Source of the DNA: a virus
Taxonomy: Duplodnaviria; Caudoviricetes
Reading direction: 5' to 3' (one strand)
Length of the DNA: 63,417 bases
Virus record (IMG/VR): IMGVR_UViG_3300029893_000006
Location: 1-63,417 of that record
A model generated the notes under the pieces. That model saw only the letters and a list, made by a program, of their open reading frames with translations. It had not been told where the DNA came from and searched no databases. The translations under genes and the position numbers were made by a program. Positions 37,792 to 51,528 of this stretch are shown one piece after another (position 1 is the first letter of the stretch; each line of letters begins with the position of its first letter).

Positions 37792-40700
37792 CTATTCAAT
37801 CGGTATCGGCTGTAAGCTGTAATGTACCCGCACCTGGTTGACAATTGTTAGTTCATAGAAGTCAAGCAGCTTTCTTTTTTCTTCCGGCGTATAATCTGCG
37901 CTTTCATGGATTTCTCTCATAATGCTGCGTACCCCTGCCAGTTCCCTTTGTAAAGAGCGCATATATTCAAGGTCCCAAAGCAGCGCCTGATCCTTTGCCG
38001 AAAGTTTAGGCGGCGTTTGACCTCTTTCAAGATAGCTCTGTTCCCTGGCGGCCAAAACTTCTGCCCTGTTCAGATCCTTGTAGAACCTGTCCACAGAAGC
38101 AGAGCCATAAGCCCCCGAGGTAGCTATAATATCCCCAAGGACAGGAATGTCCTGAATCGTCCCTTTAGGCCGCAACTTCCGGTCTGCAACGCCTGTGAGA
38201 TAAAGCAGCTCATCTACTGCTCTTATGACGTGCCTGCCCACCCCTGCCGTATAGCCTTGTATTAAAGCATCTATTCTCCTGGGTGACAACTTGAGCTTTT
38301 TACCCAGGAGCTTTGCAACTTCGCTGGTATAAGCACCATATTGAAACTCCGGTGCTCTCCCGGCTTCACTGGCAGGGACAACGGGAGCATCATTATAGAA
38401 TCTCAAGTTACCCCACTGCTCCAGTATAGGCCCTATGGCCGCAGGCATATAGTTTGGCACTGCTGTTTTCAGCAGATCCTCGGACAGATTGTTCCAGGAA
38501 GCCCTGTTTTTCTTATCAAGCTGGCGCATCAGGTTTTCAGGAAAAGCGCCAAAAATAATCCCCATCAAGAATGGCCTGGGAACTGTTAAAAACCATTTTG
38601 TTCTTGTGAAACTGCCGCCCACAGGGAGAGGGTAATTCCAGAAAAGGTTTTTCCGCCACTCTGGAAGCTCCTGATAATAAGGATTATTCCGGTTTAGTAG
38701 ATAAAGTAACACGGTAGGCAAGGTCAAAATCAAAAGCGCCCTTAAAATAAAACGTGCGGGATTCTTCTGGAAGGCTCTGCGCATCTTATCATGGCCCCTT
38801 ATCGCTGCATTGAAGAATGGAGTACTTCCTCGGATTATAGCTGTTTTACTGCCATGAACCTGGTGATCTACTGTTATATCACGACCGGCAAAACTGCCGG
38901 TTATCCAGTGTGCGCCTTTTCTGCGTGCCGCCATGTATTCCCCTACGTTGGTTGCATACTCTATCATGCTTGAAGCCCTGCCAAGAAGCCCGATGGGGTT
39001 AATCGCTATCTTCATCATTTCCTGCCATCTGCTTCTCAAAATATGATGGTATCCTTCGGTCAGATAGTCCTTATCGTAGGAAAGCTGTGTGCTCATACCG
39101 GCTCTATCAGCAAGGAAATCCCGGTAAACTTCATCGTTTTTGGCAATGTGGTATAAACCTTTAAACAATCCTAAAAGCGGCAGGTTTTGATATTCGCTGT
39201 AAATAGGAGTCTGCCACGCATCTCTCCAGGCGTTAAAACCGAGAAACCTGGGGTTCCATGTTGCTCCTATCCTTAACAGCTTCGCCGCAGGTCTGAGAAA
39301 AGTATCCACAAACCATCCAGCCGTCTCCGAATCAATGTGCATGATCGCATTGAAAAGCTGTTTGTCCTTGAACTCATAGAACTGCGGTTTTCCCTCACGC
39401 CATACCATAACCACGTTCTTGCGGACATCTCCAAAACGTTCGGGTCGAAAGATGTTTACAAGCGTTCCCATATCTACTTCTTTGCCCTGCGCCGCTTCGT
39501 TCAACAATTCGCCGAGAACATCTAACGCTGAGGAATCATCAACATCAATCCCCAGCATAGTGAGCAGCTCCCCAATCGTAGCTTTTGTAACCTTGACTGG
39601 TGTAGGTATGCTGGAGAACCATTCTCCTGTCCCACCGGCGATTTGCTCCATATCGACGAGTGCTTGCATGGCAAGGTTTTTGTCCGCCAATATAGTAAAG
39701 ATGTGGGTCTGCCTGATAATACTCTGCCATGGATCTTGAATCGGCAACATAGCGCCCTTGTAGGTGATTACTCCCTTGGAAATATTGGCGATATGCTGGC
39801 CTTCACTTTTTTTAACTTTGCGGTCATCCCGGACACGGTAGAAGGGAATGTATATATCAGGATATTTTTTAATTATGGTTTCATAGCCTTCTTCGCTTAA
39901 TATACCGCCTCTGACAAGCTGCCTTAAAACAAACCTGCAGAAGTCTCTCATCTCTTCTCTGGCCTTGTCATATTTCTTAAAATATTTGGAGGCTTCGACT
40001 TCTTTTACAAGCCTCCTGGCCGCTTCAAGCTGCGCCTTATCCATCCCGGAGATGACACCAAGCTCATCTTCTCGATAAATAGCCATTTTCGATACCAGGT
40101 AAGCGGTGAATTTGACAAAATGCGGAACGCCATCCTCATCCTTGCCCATCTGGTGAATCGGATCAGTTATTTCATAGAGCGAAGGGCCTATCTTTTTCTT
40201 TGTTCCGTATTCAATCTGCCCCCCGCCCCTGCGAATAAAGTTATGCGCCGCCATCTGCGCTCCTTTTGCCATCCGATACATCAGCCACGCATTTTTCTCC
40301 GGATCGACCACTTTCGTAGCTCCTTCACCGGCAACTTTGCGCCCACCGTAGAGTTGCTCCATGTAATAGGCTATCCTGGCCGAATCGTCAAATATGTTGT
40401 AGTAAACCTGCTCCCACCAATCTTTTACCTTTGACCAGGATATAGTTTTTTCCTTTTCGCTGCCGATAAAGGAATTAACCAGGGCAATATCCGGCTGGCG
40501 ATAGTACTTGTCAACTATGGCCCGGATTTCTTCCACCTTATCTAAAAGCTCCGACTGCGTATGAATCATCTTGTCAAAGTACTCATAGAATCCCGGCATA
40601 AGCTCTTTGGCCTTTTCCGGCTCGTTTATATAAAAGTTAATAAAGTCGGCTATACCCTCATGAACCTGGAGCTTGAAACTGGCCTCGGGCCGGACTTTCA

Positions 40701-43700
40701 AGAGCGTTTCTTGCACATAAGGAGAATTAAGCACCAGTTCCTGGGAAATACTATCAAACGCCTTTTCTCCCATTACCTTGTTTATATTCCTTTTCGAGAA
40801 CAACTTTAGCTCTCCGTCAAGAAAATGGCCCAATTCGTGCGCCAGAATTTCCAAATCCGCAAAGAATTTGGTTTTAATGCGTATATACTTTTCTTTAGAC
40901 CGGAAAAATCCCGCCATCGGCCCTCTGACATGGCCTTTATAGGTAGCGATTACTCTGTCTATTTTTCTCAATATATCCTGCTTTCTTGTGACCCGCTCCC
41001 ATGCCTGTTTGCCGGTTTCGCCCTCTCTTGCGCCCGTAGCTTTAGCAAATGCTCTGGCATCCTTCTTAGCAATGCTGTGCATTACTTCAGGCATGGAATC
41101 ATCCAGCTCCTCCTGCCACGGTTCTTTGTGAACTTTTAATAGTTCCTTTTCCGCTTTCTCTTCGGCCTTTTCAGCCGCAGCTTTTTCCGCAGAAACCCTC
41201 TTAGCCAGCCTCGTTAAATCCAACCTGCGCTTTTTTGTGATAAGAAAAGCGTTGTATTTCATTTCGATGTTTGCCGCATTGCCAAGAGCTTCTTTAATCT
41301 CCGGCAGGTAGCTTTCCAAAGGCCGGTTAAGCTGCCAGTTATACTGATTGCCAACAACAACCTTTTTAGACACTCCAGTTTTATCGCCCTGATGGACAGT
41401 GATAATGGCAAGGCCGCCGGTCTGCAGGTGCTGGAACATGAACCGAATAGCATCCAAGCGGCTTTCCTTGTCAGGTAAAACATTCAGTACGTTATTAAGG
41501 GACGCTGTTTCAGCGCCCCCTACCTGTTTTAGCCGCTCAAGGCTGGCCTTGTTGTATTCCGGTGATCGGGCCTCCGGGTCCCAAAGGATACATTCTATCC
41601 CGTTTTCCTTCAGGTATTCGATACCAAGATCATACCTGCCGCCTCCTACGTCGAAATGGAAAGCTGGTCTTTCGATTACTCCCCTATCAACCAGCTTAAC
41701 CAGGAGAGTGAGGCCGCCTGCTTTTTGCTTCTGAGATGTCCTCTCAGGCGCATGTCTCAGCTCTTTTGCCGGAGCCGAAACCTCTGTGCTTAGATATTCG
41801 GTTCGGTTGAGGAAAATGTCATAACTGCGTTCTTCAAGTTCTTGTTCGGCCTGCGCCTGCTGCTCCTTCTTTGAAAAATCTTCGGCAAGCTTAGTAGCCT
41901 CTTGTTTTATTTCATTACTTATGTCGCTTAACGGCACATTCCAATCAGCAAGTTTTGAAATAGCTAAAGCGGCCTTCTCCGCTGTCTGCATGGTATCGTA
42001 ATAGGTGCCGAAGCGCAACCCTGATTGAAGATGAGTAACCCTCCAAAGATCTCGTATATCCTTTTTCTCATTTTTCACACCTTTATTTATTGCTATGCCC
42101 GGAGCAACTTCTTTGCCGGTAACTTCAACCTTTTGCTTTATGCCGTCTATCATAAGACTTATTTCGATGACTCCAACGCCATAAGTCTCCGGCACATAAG
42201 CATCTTCAACCATTACTTCCCCTTCGAGCTGGTCGATCCCAAGCTCCTGAGCCAGTTCTTCTTTGCGCCTTCTCAGCTTTTTAAGTTCATCGGCGTATTT
42301 AAAGGGTTTTGCCGCTTCTGCTTTCAGTTCTTCAAGTCGCTTTGTGAGGGATTCGATAAATTTAACCCTGTCGGTATAATCCTTTTTTATGCCTTGAGCA
42401 CGGATCTCTAAGCTGCGGATAGTGTTGTACCCGGTCTCACCAAGCAGGACTTTATAAAAGTTGCTGCCCTCAAAGATTAACGCTCCACCATATTGATAAT
42501 GCAATCTTAAACTAAGGGGAAAGCCCGCAAATTCTCCCAGCGGAATAATTACTGCATTTAATTCTTCTTCTGAAATGCCCTCTTTATATTTCTCAGCATT
42601 AAAGAGGTGAGCGTTAATGCCTTGGAGTTTGTTTATTTCGTCTAAAAATTGTTTGGGGGTGTAAAAAGATTCCTGCCTAAATTTATCATACTTATGGAAA
42701 ACATTCTTTAAAGGACCCTCTACGCCTTGAATTATTTTACCGGCCTCTTTCCTGTCCTTGTAAACCTTGTCAAACAGTTTGATCTCAAACAAATCACCTT
42801 TGATATTTTTTGCTCTTTCCAAATCTTGTTTGGATTTTTCGGCCACTTTTTTTGCGCCTTCGAGCGACATAGAAGCAGAACTAATCTCCCGTTTTATAGC
42901 CTCTCTTTTGCCGATATAACCACTTTCAATGGCCGCAAGCTCGATTAGACGTTGCTCAATTTCCGTATATTCCATATATTTAGGATCGCCGGTTAATATG
43001 GCACTCATTTGCTTCGACGACATTTGTATCTCGTCGAAGTTCTCCATTTCCCTCATTTCCGGGTTAATGTTTCTGGTTTCTACCTGCTTGAAGTTCTTCT
43101 GTTTTATAGAAATGAGCTGCCACATGAAAATATCGAAAGTTCGTTCTGTGCCGTAAGTGTAGATAAACACTTCTTCGTTCTGGTTGCCTTGCCGGATACC
43201 TCTTCTTTCCCGTTGCTCTATCTCAGAGGGCTTCCAGGGACAATCCAGATGGTGGACCGCAATAACCTTGTCCTGGACATTCATCCCTTCGCCCATCTTT
43301 GAAGTAGATCCAAGCAGGATGCGGATATCGCCGCGCTTCACCTTCTCAAACAGCTCAAGGCGCTGCTTGTCTGTCTTGTAATCATGGATGAAAGCGATCT
43401 CGTCTGCAGGCACTCCTTTGGCCAGCAGTTTTCTGCGGATAACCTCATAGACGGTCTGCTGATCTTCTTCGAGATCCTCAAATACAACATCCTCGGCCTC
43501 TTCGTCAATATCAGCCTCTTCTTGCTCTTTGGATTTCCCTTTTGGTACGGAGAGATCTAGAAAGGCAAGCTGTGTGAGCCTGTCTTTTTCGTACTTCTTC
43601 CAAATATCAAATATATTGTTTATAGCCAGGTTGATCCGGCTGTCCTTGTAGTCCATAAGGCCCCGGAGAGGGGGATACAGGGCCACGAGCCTGCCATCAT

Positions 43701-46700
43701 TGACCACTTTCAGGAAGTTATCCTCTGAAGGGTCTACATGTCCTGCTTTAATCGCTTCGCACCTGTCGTCGAGCTCTTCGATGTAATCCATGATCTCTTC
43801 CGAAGGCTGTGCTGAAATAAGTATGCGCTGGCCTGTTGCTATCTTAGGCAACTTAATATGAGGGTTAAGCTCCAGGAATCTTTCATGGTTTACCACATCA
43901 GCGAAACTATGATAAAGCTGTAAAAGCTCCGGCAGGTTTACAAACTGAGCAAACCGGACTTTAGGCCGGAAACCCTTCCCTGATGGATTTAGCTCTGAGG
44001 CTGTTACCGCTCTGCCAAAAACACTGGCCCAGGCATCAAAGCTGTGCAAATCCCTTGCCTCCAGCTCCTGTGGCGCAAGATATCGCAGCAGGGCATACAT
44101 TTCCACCATGGAGTTAGAAATCGGCGTTCCGGAAGCAAAAACTATTCCGCTTCCGTCACGTAAGTTACGGACATAATCCGTTTTAGTAAACATATCAAAT
44201 GCCTGCATAGAGCCTTGAGGCGATCCCATGTTGCCAATGTTGTTCATACTGGTATTATAAAAAAGATTTTTGTAGTAATGGGATTCGTCCACAAATAGAG
44301 CGTCTATACCGGATTCCTCAAAAGTCATAAAACCGGCATCCTGCTGTCTTTCCAGTTTTGCCAAGTGCTCACGAAGTTTTTTCTCCAGGGCATTCCGGGC
44401 ATTTTCCATTTTGCGAACAATCGCTTTCCCTTCCTGTCCTAATGCCCTTCTCTGCTCCTGGATAGACCTCTCCAGATTTGCAAGCTCCCGGTTTATGATC
44501 CTCTCAACATATTCCCCGGACAAAGGAACCATCTTGAAGCTGGAATGGGGCATAATCACAAGATCCCAATCACCTGCAGCAATGCGCGCCAGAGCTTTCT
44601 TGCGCTTATCTGCTGCCATATCTTTTTGACTGTATGCCAAAATCTTAGCTGCTGGATAAAGCCTTCTTGCTTCTGCCGCAAACTGGCCGATGATGCTCGG
44701 TCTGGTTACAACAATAGGCTTATTAGCAATTCCCAAACGCTTCATTTCCATTGCTGAAGCGACCATGACAAAGGTTTTCCCCGAACCGGCAACGTGGTGA
44801 GCTAATGCCCCTCTTGATTGTACTATGCGCCATACCATGTCCTTTTGGTGCGGCCCCAGGGTAATTGCCGGGTTCATCCCCGGGAAGGTAAGATGGCTGC
44901 CATCAAAGTTTCGCATTACCGAATTGTTAAATTCCCAGTTGTAAACCTTAGCCAACCGTTCAGCCCTTTCGCTGTCGCTCCAGAGCCATTCCTTAAATTC
45001 TTGCTCAATCTCCCTTCCTTTTTCACGAAGGGCCAAAGTAGCAGCCTGGTGGGTTACAGTTTTTTCTTTTTCTCTGCCTTCTACAGGATCATAAGTTACT
45101 CGCTTAAACGTTGCATTGAGGCTGCGGCTGTTGAGCAAGGATTCGATTATATCAAGAGCGCTCTTTTCGATAGTAAATGAGCGCCCCGTTGATGTATCAA
45201 AACCACGAAAAACAAAACCCCACGTTTTCCTATTGGCCGTGGAGTTCCTAACGCTTGTCTTTACGCCTTTGTCCTTGAAGTCTATTCCCCAAATACCGCT
45301 TCTTGTCTCATGCGTTACTCTTACCTCATCCGCTTCCCAACTCTTAATGTCCAGTAAATGCACAAGGAAGTCTCTAACATCATCTTTACCTATCCAGGGA
45401 ACCCCAAGCTTAACGTATATCTTATCCGGTGTAAGATCAGCTGGCTGCACTTCTTTAAGTGCCTTTACATTTGCTTCATAGCTTTTATCATGTTTTGCGG
45501 CATCCTCAGCAATACGCAGTTTCTGCCGGACGTTTCCGGAAAGATACTCGTCTGCAGTAACCCATCCCTTTTCCGGATCTTTAAAGATAAAGCCTGTTAG
45601 TTCTTCTGCAACTTGATCAGAAGTTTTCCCGGTCAAGCTGGCAATATGGTTAATATCAACTACACCACGTTCATTTAGCGTAATGAGCAGCCCTTCCTTG
45701 CTGTTCTCTGCAGAGGTCTTAGTCTCATATTTCCGGACAGTGCGCTTCTTAAATACATCATTCTTTACATACTTTCCGGTTTCCGGATCTTGAACTTCAA
45801 GCCCTGCTATTCTGTAATAGGAATTATCTTCGGCAAACGCCCTGCTGTTAGCCGCAGTATTTATATAGCCATAGTTTTTAACAAAATCATCATAAACCTT
45901 GTTGAGCGTTTTCCTTAGCTTTTCTATTTCTGCTTCTGATCCGTCACTCAATTCCAGGTTAAGTAGTTCATTATAAATATCCCGGATCTTTATCATACCC
46001 CGAATTCTCTTTTCAACTGTGCCGCCTGGGGTAAAATTAAGAACCTTGTCGGCAGGCATCAAAACAAGCTGGCCGTTATCATCCAGTTGTGCAATCATCA
46101 GCTTGTTCTTCTGGATAACGATAGATCCCTCTTGTGTTTCAGGTGGCGCAATTAAAAAGTCTTCTATTTTCGGAGCTTCGGTCGCTTCGTGGACCGGCCT
46201 TTGCTTATAAGCATTCCTGGGGAGTTTTTCTGTAAGCGCATCTATTACAGATTGAGCCAGATCCCTGCCATCCGGCACAACGGCGTATTCACCGGCATAA
46301 TACATGCCCCGGATAAACGCTGTTTCTCCCATTACCATTTCAGGATGATCTACATAATACTCATTGATCGCTTCCCTGTTCTTTTCTACGGTTACATCTT
46401 TGTTTTCCAGCCATTCCTCACCGGCATAAGGCTCTCCCACGGCACGCTTACGCAAGAAAATTATATCGGTCACTACCTGGGTTTCCGCTATGCCTTTAAA
46501 AGCCTCGTTGTGCAAACGAACAGCACCAAGAAAATCGGCACGCTCATTTAGGTATTCCCGGAAACTTCTATCACGGCTGTCCATCGTGTAACGTGAGGTA
46601 ACAAACGCTACTATCCCGCCAGGACGAACCTGATCCACCGCCTTGGCGAAGAAAAAGTTATGCAGGTTATCGGCAATATTCTTGTAACGCACATCTTTGG

Positions 46701-49700
46701 CAGGAGGCGTCCGGTTAAACGGCACGTTAGATATTGCCAGGTCATAATAGTTTTCATTGAGCAGCTTTCTCTTGTCGTAAGGAACGTCAAATTCCTCGTA
46801 GCCCATGACATTGATATTGGCCCTGGGATACAAGAGCTTGGCAATATTCCCGGAAACCGTATCTATCTCAACCCCGGTGAGCCAGCTTTTCTTGGCAAGG
46901 TTTTCAGGCATCATACCAAAGAAATGGCCGATACCCATAGCCGGTTCAAGGATCCTGCCGCCATCAAACCCGATCCTTTGGAGCACTTCATACATAGCGT
47001 TAATAATTTCCGGTGACGTATAATGCGCAAAAGGCGTAGTTGCCCTTGCCGACATAAACTCTTCTTCGGTCAGCAGTTCTTTTAAAGCATTATACTGCTC
47101 CATAAGGCCATGCTTCTCCGCATAGGACTTATCAAATACGTCTTTGTAGAAGCCCCAACCAACGTATTTAATAAGAATAGCCTGCTCTTCGGGAGTAGCA
47201 GGCTGATTTCTTTCAACCAGGTCTTTCATTAAGCGGATTGCCCTGATATTGTCATTCAGTTTTTGTAGCTTGGAACGAGTATCAAGCTGATCTTCCGGCC
47301 TGATTCTGTAGTTCTCGCTGGTTATACTTCTTCCAGGGGTGGTAATTTCAGGGTCCGGAGATTCATGCCCAGCTCCGGTGCCTCCTTCTCGCTCGGCAGG
47401 TACATCCAGTTGTTTCTCGTCATCTCCCACGCCTGTTCGTACGTCAGTCCCTGGTCTTGCAGTTTTGCGATGTCCTCTATCGTCAGCCTTATCGCTTTCC
47501 TTACGGTCTGGTCGAGCTCCCCGCTCTCCTTCAGTTCTTTGTACATCTTCGGACGGAACTCTTTCCAGTGCCTCTTCACCGCGCTGGGTGCCATCAGGTT
47601 CTCTTCGATCCTCAAGACCCGTTACCTCCTCCCTTTGGGTAATACCAACCATTTCATTAATTTCGGCAGGGGTCATTTCCAGCATGGCCTTGGACTGGCC
47701 GTAAATGCCTCTTAAAAAGAGCTTGATTGCTGGCCCAAATTCCTCCAGCATAACCTCTGCCCATTCGTCATAAGAGGGATTCTCGGTAGCAAGGAGTTCT
47801 GCCCCTACAATAGCATAGTCAACAAGATCATCCATCGGCAGGCCGCCTGCCTTGCCGACAGCGAAGGAAAGCTCTTCCGGCATTTCCTCTTTCTGTGCTT
47901 CGGCTTCCCGCTTTGCCCTGCGAGCCGCAAGCCTCTTCCTGGCATCAGAAGCGGCGCCCTTGAGCCAGTCTATATTATCGGCAACCCTGCCTTCGGGGAC
48001 AGGAACTTTTTCTGCTTCCATTTTACCAGAATCTTCTGGTGGTTTCAATTCTTTTTTGGAAGGTTCTTTCACTTCCGGTTTTTCCTGTTCCCCAGCCAGT
48101 TCCTTAGCCAGTGCAATCCGGGCGTCACTTTGTTTTGCATACCAGAGTTTTTGAGGCTTACTCCATCTAAAACCGGCATTTCTAAGACGCTGGATTATCG
48201 CATCATCCGGTCTTTCTGGAAACTTAATCTCTACGCCGCCCTTTTCATCATTCAGCCTCCATGTGATACCGGAAGGCGTTTTCTCTGTAGGGGCAGGGGC
48301 CTCCTGTTTCTCCTTTTCCTGGATTGCTTTAAGCCTTATCTGTTCTGCCTCATATAGCCTGCGGTTCTCCTTGTTTGCCGCCGCAACAGCTTCTTCCCAT
48401 GATTCACGGATAGTGCCAAAGCGGACACCGTTGGCGTCCATCAGGGAATATCCTTTGCCGGTACTTGAAACGACAGGTCTAATCCTGATAGGAATACCTG
48501 GCTCCCCTTTGTATTCTTCCGGAGTAGTCCAATCTACATCTTTTTCCCACCATGGCTTACCGGGTTCACCGGCAGGCTTTTCTGGTTCCTCTTTTGGTTT
48601 TGTTCTTGCAGCGTCCTTTTCACCTGCCTCATAAAATTCATCAGCCAGGAAAGGAGGAAAGCCAGTATCTACCTCATCAAAGGGAATGTTTCTTTTGCTA
48701 ACTCCCTCTAACCCTGCTTGATAATACTTATTGAAGAACTCAACGAATAGTTTTGTATCAGGATCATCTGGTTTATCCAAGTCCACCATTATTCTTTCAT
48801 TTGCAGCCCATTTCTTTAAAGCAGCTTTACCACTGCGGCCAAGGTTGAGATCGTCAATGGTTCTGGCGGGTGCCTCCACAGGCTTCAGATCGGGATAATC
48901 GGCCAATACTTCAGGAGGTATGGGCTTGCCTTCGGCAAGGGCTCGCTCAACTAATGTTTTATGATCTGCCTCTTGTTCAACCGCATTGACTGCGCTTCGA
49001 TACTCTTTTTTGGCGATATTGTACGCTTCTTTAATTTCACGCGGAACTTTTGTTGAACGTAAAGACTTTTCTATAGCATCATCACCATATTTGTGTGGGG
49101 AAACATCAAGCAATTTTTTCTTTGCTTCTTTCAAAGCCTTTATTGCATTTTCAGCTTTAACCTGCAAAGGATGGTCTACAGGCAAAGGTATTATACCTTT
49201 TGCCATGTATTCCTTCCTGGTCATCTGCCACGGTTCCTTCGCCGGTACTTCGGCAGGCTTGGGTTCAGGCTTAACTTCCGGCTTCGCCTTTGCAATTTCA
49301 ACCGCCTTCATTTCTTCTGTGCGCTTTGCTATTTTTTCTTCCAATATTTTCTCTAAATCAGGATAACTGGCAACAGCCGCAGGCGTTACAACCCTGTCCG
49401 CGCGGATCGCTTCGGCTACAGCCTCATAGTGCTCTCTCTCAGCCGCATCCCGGGACACTCCTTCTTTAACCTTTTTGGCGACATATTCTTCCTGGGTCAT
49501 TTGATACGGATCACGGTAAACAGCAGTTGGCCCAATTTTATCCGGCCTTTCTGCTACCATTTTTACAGCTTCCGCAGGGGCCATACCAGCATTTATATTT
49601 TCAAAATACTTTGCTACGTTTTCTGTATTCAGCCTTGCCCCAACCTGCCTGAAAGTATCAACAATATTTTGGACTATGCTCCGGGCTTCTTTATGCCCAA

Positions 49701-51528
49701 GGCCCTGTTCTACCGCCTTCTGATAAGCTAAAATAGTAGCATCGTTAATCTCTTTTGTGCTTTTGGCAGTGCCTTCTCTTACAAGTTGCCGTAGCTGTGA
49801 AGGGCTTATGATAGGCCCTCCGGCAATGGGAGCTGTCATGGGTTGCAGTTTGCCCACATCGGTTGGTAAAACTTTAAATTCCGGAAACTTTGATGGGGCC
49901 TGCTGTCGCCGTCCAACATAGGGTAATTCGACTTTTTCTCCATATAAACCGGTAGCAGTAGTTGGAACCTGTCCAGTGGGAGGAATTTCGCCACGAGTAA
50001 CGGCCTGTAATCTCTGCACCTTTTCCTGCACTTCCGGCCTGGGCGCTCTCATAGGCCATTCTTTTGTATATGGAGCTTCTGGAATGATTGCAAATGCGCC
50101 GGTTTTGCCTATTTCATAGGCATCTACAGTATCTTTAATCCGGGCAATCATTTCCCTGCCTCTGGGTGTTTGCGCCCATTCCGTCTGTGAATATTTATAC
50201 AGATAATCTATTCTTGCCTGTAAAGTTTCTTCTGTCGGTTTTACTACTACAAATTCTATTGATGGTCTTTCACCCTTTTGGACCCTGGTTTCTCTCCAGT
50301 AAATATCCAGTCCCTTTTTAGTGGCAGGATCTTTTATTTCCCTGTATCCCTGGCGCACCATGCTTTCTTTATTAAAGTACGGCGACGCTTCCTTGATAAT
50401 CGCCCTGCCTCCGCCAAGAACAGCTCCGGTCAAAAAGCCCCAGCCAAAATCTTTAGTTAAATTTTTCGCTATCTCTTGTATCTTTTTTGCATCGGGAATC
50501 CCTTGAAGCTGTAAAGCATCTAAAAGCAATCTGCGGCCAGAAAAATTAATGCCTGATGTAAGGCCGCCGATAACCGCCCTTGCAGCAACCCTGCCGACAA
50601 TATCTTTAAGCGGCGAAGGGACAGGGCCCAACTCCTGCAAAACTTTCTGGCTGGCCATAGTTCTAAGCACACGTTCCCCTACTTTGCCTGTCAAAAGACG
50701 TCCCATAACCATATTTGTAGCAGGGGATACAATTTCATAACCCATGCGGCCTATACCGCCAGGAACCATATAACCTGTAATTACACCTATAATATCGGCA
50801 GTAAAGTCAAGTGCTTCGTTACCAGTAGAAGGCATTTCTTCATAAACGCTCTTTCCAGGGGCCGCTATTTGCCCCGCCATTTCGCTCATGCGGAGCAAAT
50901 ACTGCCCTGGCTTAGTCCGCTCAAAAGCCCTAAGCCTTTGGGACCATTCTTCAAGTGCCTGTGGAGTAGTAGGCTCCCATCCTTCTTCAAGCATTTCCTG
51001 TCTTTTTGCCTGAATACCAAAAATATCTTTGCCGCTCATAAGCCTTTTAAACCAATCAGGAGGCGTTTTGTCTATTTGTGCTTTTTCCTTTACATCTGTA
51101 GGAGTTGTAGGTGGCCGCAAATATTCCCATTTCCATTCATAGTCAAATGTAGGAGTTGTCGGAATAGAAGGGATAATCTGTTTTGCCTTTAGGTTTTCTA
51201 TAACCTGCTTTGCCGTTGGAGCTGCGCCTGTAACAACATCAGGCATTACTGTAGGTTTTATTATATCAGGTTCCGCATACCTGCCCATTTCTGTAGCAGG
51301 CACTTGTGGCACAAATGGTTTAGCCGGAACAACCTGCTGTACCGGTGCTGATTTTTGCCATAAATCAGGGGTGCTTATGGCCGTTGTGGGTATTACAGGG
51401 GTTTCTGGAGTTGTTGGCATAGTTCGTCTGGAAAGATCCGGCTCAAATACTGGCCGTTTCTTCTTTTTTTTGTTTTCTTCGTACGCTGCATAAAGCCCTA
51501 ATGGATCACTTCTGCGGTCAATAGCCAT
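37792..51528 (-). CDS. Giant (4578 aa) polyvalent DarB-like ejection protein: N6-MTase, SNF2 helicase, second MTase, HExxH peptidase, LPD38-like C-terminus
   Basis: LEPAMGIGHF/NVPF; HVAGSGKT, VDESH, SGTPISN, QRERRGIRQGN; FDVGGG...NVLNV; AHELGH; PFFNAAIRG...YQELPEWRKNLFW. Confidence 0.9.
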   Translation of the reverse strand: MAIDRRSDPLGLYAAYEENKKKKKRPVFEPDLSRRTMPTTPETPVIPTTAISTPDLWQKSAPVQQVVPAKPFVPQVPATEMGRYAEPDIIKPTVMPDVVTGAAPTAKQVIENLKAKQIIPSIPTTPTFDYEWKWEYLRPPTTPTDVKEKAQIDKTPPDWFKRLMSGKDIFGIQAKRQEMLEEGWEPTTPQALEEWSQRLRAFERTKPGQYLLRMSEMAGQIAAPGKSVYEEMPSTGNEALDFTADIIGVITGYMVPGGIGRMGYEIVSPATNMVMGRLLTGKVGERVLRTMASQKVLQELGPVPSPLKDIVGRVAARAVIGGLTSGINFSGRRLLLDALQLQGIPDAKKIQEIAKNLTKDFGWGFLTGAVLGGGRAIIKEASPYFNKESMVRQGYREIKDPATKKGLDIYWRETRVQKGERPSIEFVVVKPTEETLQARIDYLYKYSQTEWAQTPRGREMIARIKDTVDAYEIGKTGAFAIIPEAPYTKEWPMRAPRPEVQEKVQRLQAVTRGEIPPTGQVPTTATGLYGEKVELPYVGRRQQAPSKFPEFKVLPTDVGKLQPMTAPIAGGPIISPSQLRQLVREGTAKSTKEINDATILAYQKAVEQGLGHKEARSIVQNIVDTFRQVGARLNTENVAKYFENINAGMAPAEAVKMVAERPDKIGPTAVYRDPYQMTQEEYVAKKVKEGVSRDAAEREHYEAVAEAIRADRVVTPAAVASYPDLEKILEEKIAKRTEEMKAVEIAKAKPEVKPEPKPAEVPAKEPWQMTRKEYMAKGIIPLPVDHPLQVKAENAIKALKEAKKKLLDVSPHKYGDDAIEKSLRSTKVPREIKEAYNIAKKEYRSAVNAVEQEADHKTLVERALAEGKPIPPEVLADYPDLKPVEAPARTIDDLNLGRSGKAALKKWAANERIMVDLDKPDDPDTKLFVEFFNKYYQAGLEGVSKRNIPFDEVDTGFPPFLADEFYEAGEKDAARTKPKEEPEKPAGEPGKPWWEKDVDWTTPEEYKGEPGIPIRIRPVVSSTGKGYSLMDANGVRFGTIRESWEEAVAAANKENRRLYEAEQIRLKAIQEKEKQEAPAPTEKTPSGITWRLNDEKGGVEIKFPERPDDAIIQRLRNAGFRWSKPQKLWYAKQSDARIALAKELAGEQEKPEVKEPSKKELKPPEDSGKMEAEKVPVPEGRVADNIDWLKGAASDARKRLAARRAKREAEAQKEEMPEELSFAVGKAGGLPMDDLVDYAIVGAELLATENPSYDEWAEVMLEEFGPAIKLFLRGIYGQSKAMLEMTPAEINEMVGITQREEVTGLEDRREPDGTQRGEEALERVPSEDVQRTEGERGARPDRKESDKADDRGHRKTARPGTDVRTGVGDDEKQLDVPAEREGGTGAGHESPDPEITTPGRSITSENYRIRPEDQLDTRSKLQKLNDNIRAIRLMKDLVERNQPATPEEQAILIKYVGWGFYKDVFDKSYAEKHGLMEQYNALKELLTEEEFMSARATTPFAHYTSPEIINAMYEVLQRIGFDGGRILEPAMGIGHFFGMMPENLAKKSWLTGVEIDTVSGNIAKLLYPRANINVMGYEEFDVPYDKRKLLNENYYDLAISNVPFNRTPPAKDVRYKNIADNLHNFFFAKAVDQVRPGGIVAFVTSRYTMDSRDRSFREYLNERADFLGAVRLHNEAFKGIAETQVVTDIIFLRKRAVGEPYAGEEWLENKDVTVEKNREAINEYYVDHPEMVMGETAFIRGMYYAGEYAVVPDGRDLAQSVIDALTEKLPRNAYKQRPVHEATEAPKIEDFLIAPPETQEGSIVIQKNKLMIAQLDDNGQLVLMPADKVLNFTPGGTVEKRIRGMIKIRDIYNELLNLELSDGSEAEIEKLRKTLNKVYDDFVKNYGYINTAANSRAFAEDNSYYRIAGLEVQDPETGKYVKNDVFKKRTVRKYETKTSAENSKEGLLITLNERGVVDINHIASLTGKTSDQVAEELTGFIFKDPEKGWVTADEYLSGNVRQKLRIAEDAAKHDKSYEANVKALKEVQPADLTPDKIYVKLGVPWIGKDDVRDFLVHLLDIKSWEADEVRVTHETRSGIWGIDFKDKGVKTSVRNSTANRKTWGFVFRGFDTSTGRSFTIEKSALDIIESLLNSRSLNATFKRVTYDPVEGREKEKTVTHQAATLALREKGREIEQEFKEWLWSDSERAERLAKVYNWEFNNSVMRNFDGSHLTFPGMNPAITLGPHQKDMVWRIVQSRGALAHHVAGSGKTFVMVASAMEMKRLGIANKPIVVTRPSIIGQFAAEARRLYPAAKILAYSQKDMAADKRKKALARIAAGDWDLVIMPHSSFKMVPLSGEYVERIINRELANLERSIQEQRRALGQEGKAIVRKMENARNALEKKLREHLAKLERQQDAGFMTFEESGIDALFVDESHYYKNLFYNTSMNNIGNMGSPQGSMQAFDMFTKTDYVRNLRDGSGIVFASGTPISNSMVEMYALLRYLAPQELEARDLHSFDAWASVFGRAVTASELNPSGKGFRPKVRFAQFVNLPELLQLYHSFADVVNHERFLELNPHIKLPKIATGQRILISAQPSEEIMDYIEELDDRCEAIKAGHVDPSEDNFLKVVNDGRLVALYPPLRGLMDYKDSRINLAINNIFDIWKKYEKDRLTQLAFLDLSVPKGKSKEQEEADIDEEAEDVVFEDLEEDQQTVYEVIRRKLLAKGVPADEIAFIHDYKTDKQRLELFEKVKRGDIRILLGSTSKMGEGMNVQDKVIAVHHLDCPWKPSEIEQRERRGIRQGNQNEEVFIYTYGTERTFDIFMWQLISIKQKNFKQVETRNINPEMREMENFDEIQMSSKQMSAILTGDPKYMEYTEIEQRLIELAAIESGYIGKREAIKREISSASMSLEGAKKVAEKSKQDLERAKNIKGDLFEIKLFDKVYKDRKEAGKIIQGVEGPLKNVFHKYDKFRQESFYTPKQFLDEINKLQGINAHLFNAEKYKEGISEEELNAVIIPLGEFAGFPLSLRLHYQYGGALIFEGSNFYKVLLGETGYNTIRSLEIRAQGIKKDYTDRVKFIESLTKRLEELKAEAAKPFKYADELKKLRRRKEELAQELGIDQLEGEVMVEDAYVPETYGVGVIEISLMIDGIKQKVEVTGKEVAPGIAINKGVKNEKKDIRDLWRVTHLQSGLRFGTYYDTMQTAEKAALAISKLADWNVPLSDISNEIKQEATKLAEDFSKKEQQAQAEQELEERSYDIFLNRTEYLSTEVSAPAKELRHAPERTSQKQKAGGLTLLVKLVDRGVIERPAFHFDVGGGRYDLGIEYLKENGIECILWDPEARSPEYNKASLERLKQVGGAETASLNNVLNVLPDKESRLDAIRFMFQHLQTGGLAIITVHQGDKTGVSKKVVVGNQYNWQLNRPLESYLPEIKEALGNAANIEMKYNAFLITKKRRLDLTRLAKRVSAEKAAAEKAEEKAEKELLKVHKEPWQEELDDSMPEVMHSIAKKDARAFAKATGAREGETGKQAWERVTRKQDILRKIDRVIATYKGHVRGPMAGFFRSKEKYIRIKTKFFADLEILAHELGHFLDGELKLFSKRNINKVMGEKAFDSISQELVLNSPYVQETLLKVRPEASFKLQVHEGIADFINFYINEPEKAKELMPGFYEYFDKMIHTQSELLDKVEEIRAIVDKYYRQPDIALVNSFIGSEKEKTISWSKVKDWWEQVYYNIFDDSARIAYYMEQLYGGRKVAGEGATKVVDPEKNAWLMYRMAKGAQMAAHNFIRRGGGQIEYGTKKKIGPSLYEITDPIHQMGKDEDGVPHFVKFTAYLVSKMAIYREDELGVISGMDKAQLEAARRLVKEVEASKYFKKYDKAREEMRDFCRFVLRQLVRGGILSEEGYETIIKKYPDIYIPFYRVRDDRKVKKSEGQHIANISKGVITYKGAMLPIQDPWQSIIRQTHIFTILADKNLAMQALVDMEQIAGGTGEWFSSIPTPVKVTKATIGELLTMLGIDVDDSSALDVLGELLNEAAQGKEVDMGTLVNIFRPERFGDVRKNVVMVWREGKPQFYEFKDKQLFNAIMHIDSETAGWFVDTFLRPAAKLLRIGATWNPRFLGFNAWRDAWQTPIYSEYQNLPLLGLFKGLYHIAKNDEVYRDFLADRAGMSTQLSYDKDYLTEGYHHILRSRWQEMMKIAINPIGLLGRASSMIEYATNVGEYMAARRKGAHWITGSFAGRDITVDHQVHGSKTAIIRGSTPFFNAAIRGHDKMRRAFQKNPARFILRALLILTLPTVLLYLLNRNNPYYQELPEWRKNLFWNYPLPVGGSFTRTKWFLTVPRPFLMGIIFGAFPENLMRQLDKKNRASWNNLSEDLLKTAVPNYMPAAIGPILEQWGNLRFYNDAPVVPASEAGRAPEFQYGAYTSEVAKLLGKKLKLSPRRIDALIQGYTAGVGRHVIRAVDELLYLTGVADRKLRPKGTIQDIPVLGDIIATSGAYGSASVDRFYKDLNRAEVLAAREQSYLERGQTPPKLSAKDQALLWDLEYMRSLQRELAGVRSIMREIHESADYTPEEKRKLLDFYELTIVNQVRVHYSLQPIPIE
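47322..47615 (-). CDS. Nested +1-frame gene (TnpV-like helical protein) inside the giant gene
   Basis: AGGAGGT RBS 9 nt before TTG; KRHWKEFRPKMYKELKESGEL...AWEMTRNNWMYLP; the host frame here is low-complexity. Confidence 0.75.
   Translation of the reverse strand: MRIEENLMAPSAVKRHWKEFRPKMYKELKESGELDQTVRKAIRLTIEDIAKLQDQGLTYEQAWEMTRNNWMYLPSEKEAPELGMNLRTLKLPPLEEV

Follow-up and report, generated by a model that had tools for sequence, protein, structure and literature searches.

The window, a stretch of 63,417 nucleotides (positions 1 to 63,417 of the IMG/VR record IMGVR_UViG_3300029893_000006), carries a giant gene for a DarB-like polyvalent virion protein, frame 0 of which contains zero stops along its whole length, and a complete second ORF that lies within this longer ORF, on the same strand and in a different frame (Table 1). 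The giant protein matches phrog_10089 ('DarB-like antirestriction'; E=0, aa 1301-3218), and LPD38, Helicase_C, ResIII, and Eco57I are found in it with Pfam. The Eco57I match is weak and the methyltransferase has conserved VGWG and NPPF-type motifs (alignment A5), while the ResIII, SNF2-rel_dom, and Helicase_C matches are weak to moderate; the gene is thus predicted to encode, within a single polypeptide, an N6-adenine methyltransferase and, after it, an SF2/SNF2 helicase, the order by which a DarB-like host gene was recognized. The helical domain that precedes the nested gene aligns with an 'IDPE.L..G..LA..IE.G' block of its relatives and is modelled as helices by AlphaFold2 (pLDDT 57-73).

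Table 1. Features of the giant gene and of the ORF nested within it, in positions of the window.
Feature	Position	Strand	Basis or remark
Giant DarB-like polyvalent virion-protein gene (host ORF, frame 0)	37792..51528	-	4578 aa
Helical domain, giant aa ~1232-1298, directly upstream of the nested gene	47635..47835	-	alignment and AlphaFold2
Shine-Dalgarno sequence AGGAGGT of the nested gene	47624..47630	-	sequence read directly
Disordered R/E/G/D-rich linker, giant codons 1305-1403	47320..47616	-	composition and pLDDT
Nested gene, TnpV-like helical protein P0001	47322..47615	-	+1 frame, 97 codons and TAA, TTG start
TTG start codon of the nested gene	47613..47615	-	conserved H of HWKE lies 15 codons downstream
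Alternative in-frame ATG, codon 8 of the nested ORF	47592..47594	-	
N-terminal helical region and N6-adenine methyltransferase domain, aa 1410-1779	46192..47301	-	begins immediately past the nested stop
SNF2/SF2 helicase region, aa 2223-2781	43186..44862	-	Pfam ResIII, SNF2-rel_dom, Helicase_C
LPD38 domain, aa 4284-4464	38137..38679	-	Pfam PF18857, E=2.1e-30

The first base of the nested ORF lies 3913 nt after the giant start and, because 3913 mod 3 = 1, the ORF occupies the +1 frame. An earlier, sequence-only reading of this DNA had described a same-strand +1 ORF of 97 codons and quoted its product; both hold, with the strand to be given as minus. The 9 nt that it placed between AGGAGGT and the TTG are correct when counted from AGGAGG, the spacing from AGGAGGT being 8 nt, and its 9 nt between the nested stop and ENYRI must be amended to 5 nt, measured from the TAA (47324..47322) to the GAG codon of ENYRI. 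In relatives, the start lies 12-15 codons ahead of the conserved H of HWKE, and the alternative ATG at codon 8 has no SD-like motif in the 25 nt upstream. AGGAGG is also used by other genes of this phage, including the giant gene. The product, P0001, matches phrog_938 (E=4.7e-10) and is modelled by AlphaFold2 with a pLDDT of 76.5 overall and 87-91 in its core; proteins of the nested family are small, acidic (median pI 4.9), and helical. The 99-codon stop-to-stop stretch is the longest alternative frame in the giant gene (the next comprise 83 and 81 codons), and the nested start is the sole out-of-frame site in the giant gene at which a strong SD and a start codon are followed by more than 40 codons. 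Taken alone, the window makes an only suggestive case for a nested gene; comparative evidence lifts the predicted gene far above chance.

Across the nested gene, the giant frame had been described as disordered and rich in R/E/G/D, which is borne out by both composition and modelling: residues 1305-1403 are 55% R/E/G/D and 9% hydrophobic, and AlphaFold2 assigns aa 1293-1399 a pLDDT of 30-43, below 50 throughout and without secondary structure, followed by 79-98 from approximately aa 1400 (the methyltransferase region). In the window, a stop-creating T occurs at 0 of 38 at-risk sites in the giant frame, and this frame is open in 0 of 400 synonymous resamplings. Across loci, T precedes 0 of 2197 at-risk sites vs 7.8% elsewhere, and the giant frame has a median chance of 0.0075 of remaining open when codons are resampled synonymously; in 13 free-standing TnpV genes, used as a control, the corresponding frame is open for only 2-26 codons. 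These figures indicate a host frame that is kept open by selection.

A tblastn search with P0001 retrieves 15 phage records representing 8 named phages, always within the giant gene and with E down to 2e-11, and in 6 of the 8 phages the match has an offset mod 3 of 1 relative to the giant start as annotated. None of the 15 records annotates the nested ORF in its own right, in keeping with the prediction that gene callers would routinely miss it; that prediction does not extend to the protein databases, in which the family has 343 matches of similar length (called 'hypothetical protein' wherever a name is given). One of the two genes at the locus tends to stay unannotated. Among 75 IMG/VR loci found with the small protein, 73 carry it in the +1 frame relative to an ORF that runs for 1055-2089 codons without a stop. 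The sequence-only reading had proposed looking upstream of the methyltransferase for a conserved +1 ORF; in the best 80 of 337 methyltransferase loci, picked by methyltransferase similarity alone, a TnpV-like ORF is present upstream in 61, and all 61 are nested and in the +1 frame, with 0 in another frame or on the other strand (locus counts being uncorrected for kinship). The ORF was not detectable in the other 19 of these 80 loci, and the small gene is thus not obligatory. Start codons in 65 non-redundant loci are ATG (60), GTG (4), and TTG (1), mostly 12 codons ahead of the invariant HW, and GGAG, GAGG, or AGGA stands at -17..-4 of 63 of the 65 starts (background: 12.2% over all positions, 8.4% at other ATGs), which indicates that the nested gene has translation-initiation signals of its own. 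The proposal that a conserved second gene, equipped with an SD and a start of its own, lies immediately ahead of the methyltransferase region is upheld by these counts.

The same arrangement reaches beyond phages: all four plasmid genes checked (Firmicutes) are nested likewise, with ATG and a strong SD, and the methyltransferase-adjacent upstream position is kept across phages and plasmids of different phyla. Conservation of the arrangement spans many phages as well as Firmicutes plasmids and chromosomal elements; a published description of the nested gene was not found. P0001 shares at most 50% identity over 42 aa with any relative, and as the window has no close relative its TTG start is not checkable by conservation. 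A metagenome scan with P0001 yielded 5 loci, none of them close and 4 of them truncated copies, and a word-based homologue search with P0001 alone as the query yielded no match.

Two simpler accounts of the locus fare poorly against these comparisons. Sequencing or assembly frameshifts, with the domain truly in frame within the giant protein, might be suspected in a metagenome-derived record, but the same +1 offset recurs in independently sequenced isolates and in 61/61 loci, and the ORF is flanked by stops on both sides, so that the probability of such an error is practically negligible. It is likewise scarcely credible that the locus comprises three genes (an N-terminal part, the small gene, and a methyltransferase-helicase) across which the giant frame is open by accident or through an annotation artefact. 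Free-standing small genes do adjoin separate methyltransferase or helicase genes at three loci (L112, L121, and L132), and the PBC5 gene is annotated as split; nevertheless, the frame is open in 73/75 and 61/61 loci and frame 0 of the window lacks any stop, to which the 0/2197 stop-creating T and the 0/400 open resamplings must be added.

Differences between relatives also bear the marks of two readings. Pairwise differences in the small ORF amount to 0.359, 0.336, and 0.466 at its own three codon positions, and those in the flanks, by giant-frame codon position, to 0.415/0.385/0.629 and 0.489/0.472/0.672. Among 71 close pairs, 915 changes leave the residues of the small ORF unaltered but replace one in the giant frame, and 132 do the opposite, with opportunities of 18.1% and 26.2%, respectively; changes of the former kind are thus approximately 10 times commoner per opportunity, uncorrected for kinship. 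Purifying selection in the small frame had been named as a check of the nested gene, and this asymmetry indicates that it acts on the predicted protein. Both frames are shown by the comparative data to be under selection, the small gene being approximately 10-fold more constrained than the linker.

The family to which the small protein belongs is probably that of TnpV (Pfam PF14198), which was first named in Tn4451 of Clostridium perfringens. A profile search returned 1434 matches, mostly of 75-130 aa and many aligning from residue 1, and the Pfam TnpV model is matched at E<=1 by 40 of 66 family members (best 2.9e-7); the nested ORF of one locus (L092) reaches 39.1 bits against a curated cut-off of 27. 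The TnpV likeness noted in the sequence-only reading accordingly stands at the level of the family; P0001 itself has no match to the model at E<=1, a search of all six frames of the record gave none at E<=10 either, and the protein falls short of the Pfam gathering cut-off (27 bits). The profile comparison with classical TnpV that had been suggested gave a moderate result (hhalign probability 64.6%, E 6.3e-5, over only 50 columns), and homology of the small protein to TnpV through its relatives and profiles is accordingly of moderate, not decisive, strength. The two share the character of a small helical mobile-element protein with a W/G..(H/R).(K/L).(E/Y).+P..Y..L...G.L core, and differ in that the window protein has 97 aa vs about 120-160 aa and no N-terminal extension. 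Nesting is common to both: of 25 classical TnpV genes in 81 sampled genomes, 12 are nested in the +1 frame and 13 are free-standing, and tblastn of classical TnpV against phage records finds unannotated fragments only. Structural searches gave no fold match in the PDB at E<1 (Foldseek), a designed repeat protein (E 0.0068) as the single match of a PDB sequence-profile search, and Q8W6J4_2, which we take to be the PBC5 protein, as the sole match in BFVD (E 3.3e-4). A weak Pfam match of P0001 to RpoY (E 0.0024, below the cut-off), found in 1 of 66 members, was dropped.

Some family members are joined to the sequence upstream of them, and these raise a different possibility, namely programmed +1 frameshifting near the internal SD-like sequence, by which a product of the N-terminal 1300 aa ending in the TnpV-like domain would be made alongside the full-length protein. 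There is a precedent in prfB, in which an internal SD stimulates a +1 shift. A 2180-aa protein annotated in PBC5 carries the domain in frame at its C-terminus, phrog_938 places the domain at positions 2094-2157 of 2185, and P0132 (956 aa) ends with it, in frame with the upstream part and without a preceding Met. The PBC5 fusion, however, results from a single 1-nt frame difference from its relatives approximately 45 nt upstream of the ATG, and its giant frame is still stop-free across the small gene. Several loci, phages among them, moreover close the +1 frame with a stop only 2-5 codons before the conserved ATG of the small gene, and a conserved shift-prone site between the last +1 stop and the domain was not found, as judged by the stop-to-ATG distance only. 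With start codon and SD conserved, a spacing of 8 nt that suits initiation, and free-standing relatives that begin at the same position as the nested ORF, frameshifting is highly unlikely. What the locus holds is very probably a genuine TnpV-superfamily gene of approximately 100 codons that lies within the giant DarB-like gene, on its strand and in its +1 frame, and is putatively translated independently.

The relative age of the two readings can be approached through the same relatives. Because the small gene has free-standing relatives and the giant frame is a disordered linker, the small gene is probably the older reading and the linker the younger one, laid over it. The term 'overprinted', applied to the small gene in the sequence-only reading, probably has the direction reversed. 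Whether the position has meaning is a separate matter. The small gene could be real and its position a historical accident, the protein acting alone, for example as an Xis-like DNA-binding or regulatory factor, with no tie to the methyltransferase-helicase. Some TnpV genes are free-standing in elements without a methyltransferase-helicase seen nearby, which weakens the idea of a partnership, as do the 13/25 free-standing cases sampled; other free-standing relatives lie among unrelated genes (transposase, GIY-YIG, AAA), and a common partner was not found among the neighbours of free-standing copies. TnpV of Tn4451 has been postulated to be Xis-like, and TnpX alone is needed for transposition according to the title of a reference cited there (PMC3158075). 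On the other side, the methyltransferase-adjacent position persists among phages and plasmids from different phyla, helicase or methyltransferase genes are neighbours of free-standing copies too, and one protein, P0021, is an in-frame fusion of the giant protein's upstream helical domain and a TnpV-like domain (support for such a fusion being limited to P0021, as the N-terminal part of P0019 has no significant likeness to the upstream domain). An accident of position is, on this balance, rather unlikely.

The nested gene fills the exact interval between the upstream helical domain and the methyltransferase-helicase module. Its SD and start (AGGAGGT, 8 nt, TTG) most likely direct a separate round of translation that yields a free polypeptide; ribosomes in the giant frame would read the same nucleotides as a disordered linker joining the halves of the 4578-aa virion protein. 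The polyvalent ORF may have been extended through the small gene, probably the older of the two. Seen from the small gene, the giant frame is -1, the only frame from which all stops could be removed synonymously for the small gene, since merely the avoidance of T at third positions is needed. The product may be a separate, non-fused subunit working with the methyltransferase-helicase module, putatively as a chaperone or inhibitor retained by the producing cell, or as a loading factor. A broader proposal, possible though doubtful, is that proteins of the TnpV family have since ancient times been accessory subunits of DarB-type methyltransferase-helicase effectors, unfused although encoded in cis, and left behind as chaperone or inhibitor, and that in phages and conjugative elements the polyvalent genes expanded as effector modules were fused through the TnpV gene, thereby writing a disordered linker in the -1 frame. 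Such a history would explain dual coding in approximately half of the sampled TnpV genes and three quarters of the sampled phage methyltransferase-helicase genes, and would reverse classical overprinting.

Several known systems offer partial parallels. Rz and Rz1 products are both made, are of similar scale, and form one complex. The present locus resembles Rz1 inside Rz (spanins) in that a whole +1 gene with its own start lies in a longer gene of the same strand (JC1 paper, PMC9144972), and differs in scale, a 97-aa gene being set in a 4578-aa gene, in the disordered linker that the host frame encodes, and in the existence of free-standing relatives of the nested gene. P1 DarB and the polyvalent proteins share with it the methyltransferase and SF2 helicase dyad in a multidomain phage protein with LPD38, but their architecture as described in the main text of that paper includes no nested gene, the terms 'tnpv', 'overlapping', and 'frameshift' being absent there (Iyer et al., 2017; PMC5512222). 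Virion association, ejection, and protection of DNA from restriction are known, as far as the cited passages go, for P1 DarB and JC1 gp69 only (PMC5512222; PMC9144972). Classical viral overprinting, the subject of a review (PMC8227390), likewise yields two proteins per DNA stretch under asymmetric constraint; there the new frame is a novel protein in an old gene, whereas here the small gene appears old and the linker of the large gene new. A looser analogy might be drawn with secretion chaperones of injected effectors, which are also small, acidic, helical, and encoded with a very large packaged or transferred protein, but no sequence or fold match links them (PDB Foldseek, E<1).

Giant anti-restriction proteins of phages and plasmids are otherwise treated as single polypeptides; the predicted gene brings to this class a further protein, widely conserved and unannotated, and TnpV, a family without known function, would gain a precise and testable genomic partner. 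The locus may also serve as a clean natural case of dual coding over the long term, with a complete and probably older gene translated through as a linker, and it bears on the evolutionary assembly of polyvalent proteins. For engineering, any mutation in the 300-nt stretch would alter two proteins.

The virus record of 63,417 nt is complete, with direct terminal repeats, and the product of its largest gene matches the DarB-like antirestriction family of PHROGs (phrog_10089, E=0, aa 1301-3218) as well as helicase pieces and LPD38 in Pfam. Within this giant gene, the sequence-only reading had identified a same-strand, +1-frame ORF of 97 codons with a TTG start preceded by AGGAGGT; the ORF stands as described, but the spacing of its stop had to be corrected, as the GAG of ENYRI begins 5 nt, not 9, after the end of the TAA, with 8 nt separating AGGAGGT from the TTG. 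The same strong Shine-Dalgarno (SD) sequence is used by other genes of the phage, and no SD precedes the ATG at codon 8 of the small ORF in the window. No other alternative frame within the giant gene is as long (99 codons stop to stop, the next two being 83 and 81), and at no other out-of-frame site there do a strong SD and a start codon open a stretch of >40 codons. The runners-up, of 83 and 81 codons, are +1-frame stretches as well, and both lack a strong SD with a start. On the window sequence alone, the case for a small gene is suggestive only.

Coordinates of the giant gene and the ORF nested within it
Feature	Position	Strand	Description
Giant gene (largest in window)	37792..51528	-	ORF, 4578 aa
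Small ORF	47322..47615	-	97 codons + TAA, TTG start, +1 frame (offset 3913 nt from giant start)

A scan of IMG/VR with the alignment of small proteins yielded 75 loci. In 73 of them, the small ORF lies within an open stretch of 1055-2089 codons in the frame one base upstream; L052 and L061, the contig of Sinorhizobium phage PBC5, do not conform. Because these loci were found via the small ORF itself, a second sample, sharing some contigs with the first, was chosen solely on the methyltransferase region (giant aa 1410-1779, alignment A5). In the best 80 of 337 such loci, HMMs built from the small protein (A2) and from classical TnpV (A4) were run against all six upstream frames at E<=1e-3. The conserved +1-frame ORF expected upstream of the methyltransferase in DarB-like loci was recovered in 61 of these 80; all 61 matches are +1-frame and same-strand, nested in the ORF of the methyltransferase frame and mostly 11-270 nt ahead of the methyltransferase match, and the other frames and the other strand gave no match. 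No TnpV-like ORF was found upstream at this threshold in the other 19 of the 80. In 17 of the 80 (e.g., L165, L171, L179, and L193), no TnpV-like ORF reaches E<=1e-3 even though the methyltransferase frame extends upstream without a stop for 300 codons or more; these loci either hold a more diverged version or lack the gene altogether. Four Agrobacterium/Rhizobium-type loci (L024, L032, L036, and L050) carry an extra conserved domain of ~150 aa (EGPFGPILRGY.GKWR.AALEL..., columns ~380-590 of the giant-frame alignment A3) between the nested gene and the methyltransferase, which the window lacks. In four near-identical loci on metagenome contigs (L125-L128), the small-protein domain is cut to its N-terminal half (HWKEFRPKMY...), followed by a stop; these look like truncated or frameshifted remnants.

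The arrangement recurs in named phages. The small protein, P0001, matches phrog_938 (E=4.7e-10), and tblastn placed it in 15 phage records representing 8 phages (33-40% identity, best E 2e-11). All matches lie under the giant gene except that of Itty13, which falls under CDSs annotated on the opposite strand; arithmetic on annotated coordinates gave a match offset of 1 (mod 3) in PEp14, VvAW1, Atu_ph08, POI1126, Stean, and Pavtok. In Itty13, the match strand has a frame open over the entire 3.2-kb locus, with the small-protein match in its +1 frame. At this locus (L008; Pseudomonas phage Itty13, NC_070969.1 5602-8802), gp02 and gp03 are annotated on the strand opposite to the open ORF, an annotation that may be on the wrong strand. 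PBC5 is the only one of the 8 with the TnpV-like domain in frame with an upstream CDS (2180 aa), owing to a single 1-nt frame difference from its nearest relatives ~45 nt upstream of the small-ORF ATG; its methyltransferase frame is still without stops across the small ORF. This difference (L009/L061) breaks the giant gene in two and joins its N-terminal 2000 aa to the TnpV-like domain; it may reflect a recent mutation or an error in sequencing.

The proposal that the small ORF has its own ribosome-binding site was upheld across 65 non-redundant IMG/VR loci, of which 63 have GGAG, GAGG, or AGGA at -17..-4 (a count that ignores kinship among loci) vs. a background, in the same loci, of 12.2% of all positions and 8.4% of other ATGs. 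The start codon is ATG in 60, GTG in 4, and TTG in 1, mostly 12 codons ahead of an invariant HW, and several phages have an in-frame stop 2-5 codons before it. The SD-like motifs vary between lineages; the window's nearest nested relatives (L085, L092, and L129) start 13-22 codons ahead of HW and have strong SDs.

The predicted fold of the small protein is a helical bundle (pLDDT 76.5 overall, 87-91 over residues 11-70), and its family is acidic, with a median pI of 4.9. No structural relative was found in the PDB, and BFVD returned a single matching chain, Q8W6J4_2. Over the same interval, the giant frame of the window is 55% R/E/G/D and 9% hydrophobic, and its mean hydrophobic share over 64 loci is 10% in the overlap vs. 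28% downstream. In an AlphaFold2 model of giant aa 1200-1800, residues 1293-1399 lack secondary structure and have pLDDT 30-43, with values of 79-98 from the methyltransferase N-terminal region on. Structure prediction and composition agree with the earlier description of a helical small product opposite a disordered linker. When read from codons, the seemingly conserved linker motifs ALEG.PAE.V and RGVGDG.G.VPVPARG are by-products of the small-frame sequences HWKE... and EAWEMVRE....

Selection acts on both frames, though unequally, and actively keeps the giant frame open. Over 79 columns of the small ORF from 66 sequences, variability at codon positions 1, 2, and 3 of its own frame was 0.359, 0.336, and 0.466; read in the giant frame, the corresponding values were 0.415, 0.385, and 0.629 in the downstream flank and 0.489, 0.472, and 0.672 in the upstream flank. 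The giant-frame wobble position, which is small-frame position 2, is the least variable within the overlap. Isolated changes in 71 close pairs (80-99.5% identity) were then classed by their effect in each frame.

Isolated nucleotide changes in close pairs, by effect in the two frames
Effect	Observed	Share of opportunity
Synonymous in small frame, nonsynonymous in giant frame	915	18.1%
Nonsynonymous in small frame, synonymous in giant frame	132	26.2%
Nonsynonymous in both frames	198	46.1%
Synonymous in both frames	65	0.8%

Scaled to opportunity, changes of the first class are ~10 times as common as those of the second, and together with the codon-position pattern these counts support purifying selection in the +1 frame. 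A stop in the giant frame needs a small-frame codon ending in T followed by one starting with AA, AG, or GA; such a T occurs at 0 of 2197 at-risk sites vs. 7.8% T at other third positions. Under synonymous resampling of the small ORF, the giant frame stays open with a median probability of 0.0075 (0 of 400 trials for the window), and in 13 free-standing TnpV genes, used as a control, the equivalent frame is open for merely 2-26 codons. The interval is dual-coding, conserved, and selected, and its small frame is equipped with initiation signals.

A profile of 66 small proteins matched 1434 proteins at E<=1e-3 and 531 at E<=1e-10 among 1.84 billion representatives, mostly 75-130 aa long and many aligned from residue 1. 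A second database gave 343 matches of similar length; among the 120 listed, none carries a Pfam domain, most are unnamed, and the named ones are nearly all "hypothetical protein". The suggested resemblance to TnpV holds through relatives: Pfam TnpV is reached at E<=1 by 40 of the 66 members (best 2.9e-7), the nested ORF of L092 (41% identity to P0001 over the matched segment) scores 39.1 bits against a cut-off of 27, and hhalign of A2 with 19 classical TnpV proteins gave 64.6% probability (E 6.3e-5, 50 columns). P0001 itself has no match to Pfam TnpV at E<=1. As its relatives and profile reach TnpV and the protein itself does not, P0001 is filed as a putative TnpV-superfamily relative below the Pfam threshold.

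Classical TnpV genes share the nested arrangement. Across 81 sampled genomes of the order of L092's genome, the TnpV cut-off was passed at 25 places in 18 genomes. Of these places, 12 are nested, always +1 relative to an ORF of >800 codons, and 13 are free-standing. Methyltransferase homology to the window's giant protein starts downstream of TnpV in four nested loci (immediately after it in L137), and L132 has a free-standing TnpV after a helicase C-terminus. Among plasmids (PLSDB, with an incomplete gene table), 24 records matched a classical TnpV query; the annotation under the match is a large SNF2/helicase/LPD25-type gene in 15, "TnpV protein" in 7, and absent in 2. All four plasmid loci checked (Virgibacillus, Enterococcus, B. 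cereus, and C. perfringens) contain a complete TnpV ORF with ATG and a strong SD, in the +1 frame ~240-250 codons into the annotated gene. The phage-type small protein is not nested in 17 of 39 bacterial-genome loci, and in L121 a large ORF that starts shortly before the small one overlaps it.

Given its free-standing relatives and a fold, opposite a low-complexity linker constrained solely to stay open, we infer that the small gene is the older reading. Relative to it, the giant frame is the -1 frame, the only one whose stops can, under the genetic code, all be removed by synonymous changes, a property that may explain the constant frame relation without a single origin. As to function, three features favor a putative role alongside the methyltransferase-helicase module: the position is fixed at the methyltransferase boundary across phyla, some free-standing copies adjoin helicase or methyltransferase genes, and in one protein (P0021) the TnpV-like domain is joined in frame to the upstream domain of the giant proteins. 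Few free-standing phage-type copies have such neighbors, most having none. The small protein stays separate inside a gene whose logic is fusing everything, which tentatively suggests that it has to be left behind when the giant protein is transferred, as expected of a chaperone or inhibitor. This reading is given slightly less than even odds, and an independent Xis-like or regulatory role is rated less likely. Passages of PMC9144972, PMC5512222, PMC6630229, PMC5492332, and PMC3158075 contain no mention of a gene nested in the giant gene, and "tnpv", "overlapping", and "frameshift" are all absent from the main text of Iyer et al. (PMC5512222). No prior description was found in the main texts, mostly outside subscription journals, of the literature on DarB-like, TnpV, and polyvalent proteins; an earlier description elsewhere is possible.

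P0021, a 376-aa database protein, carries a TnpV-like domain (residues 3-74) in frame with a helical domain (residues 130-189) that corresponds to the one just upstream of the nested gene in giant proteins (E 2e-13 to PBC5). In seven free-standing loci (L088, L089, L090, L104, L107, L120, and L122), the giant-equivalent frame is open for 107-157 codons, approximately the length of the small gene, with no surrounding giant ORF, and these may descend from nested copies. L122 and L123 are two identical free-standing small genes ~23 kb apart on one Acidobacteriota MAG contig, the former neighbored by a DDE transposase and a metallopeptidase-like ORF.
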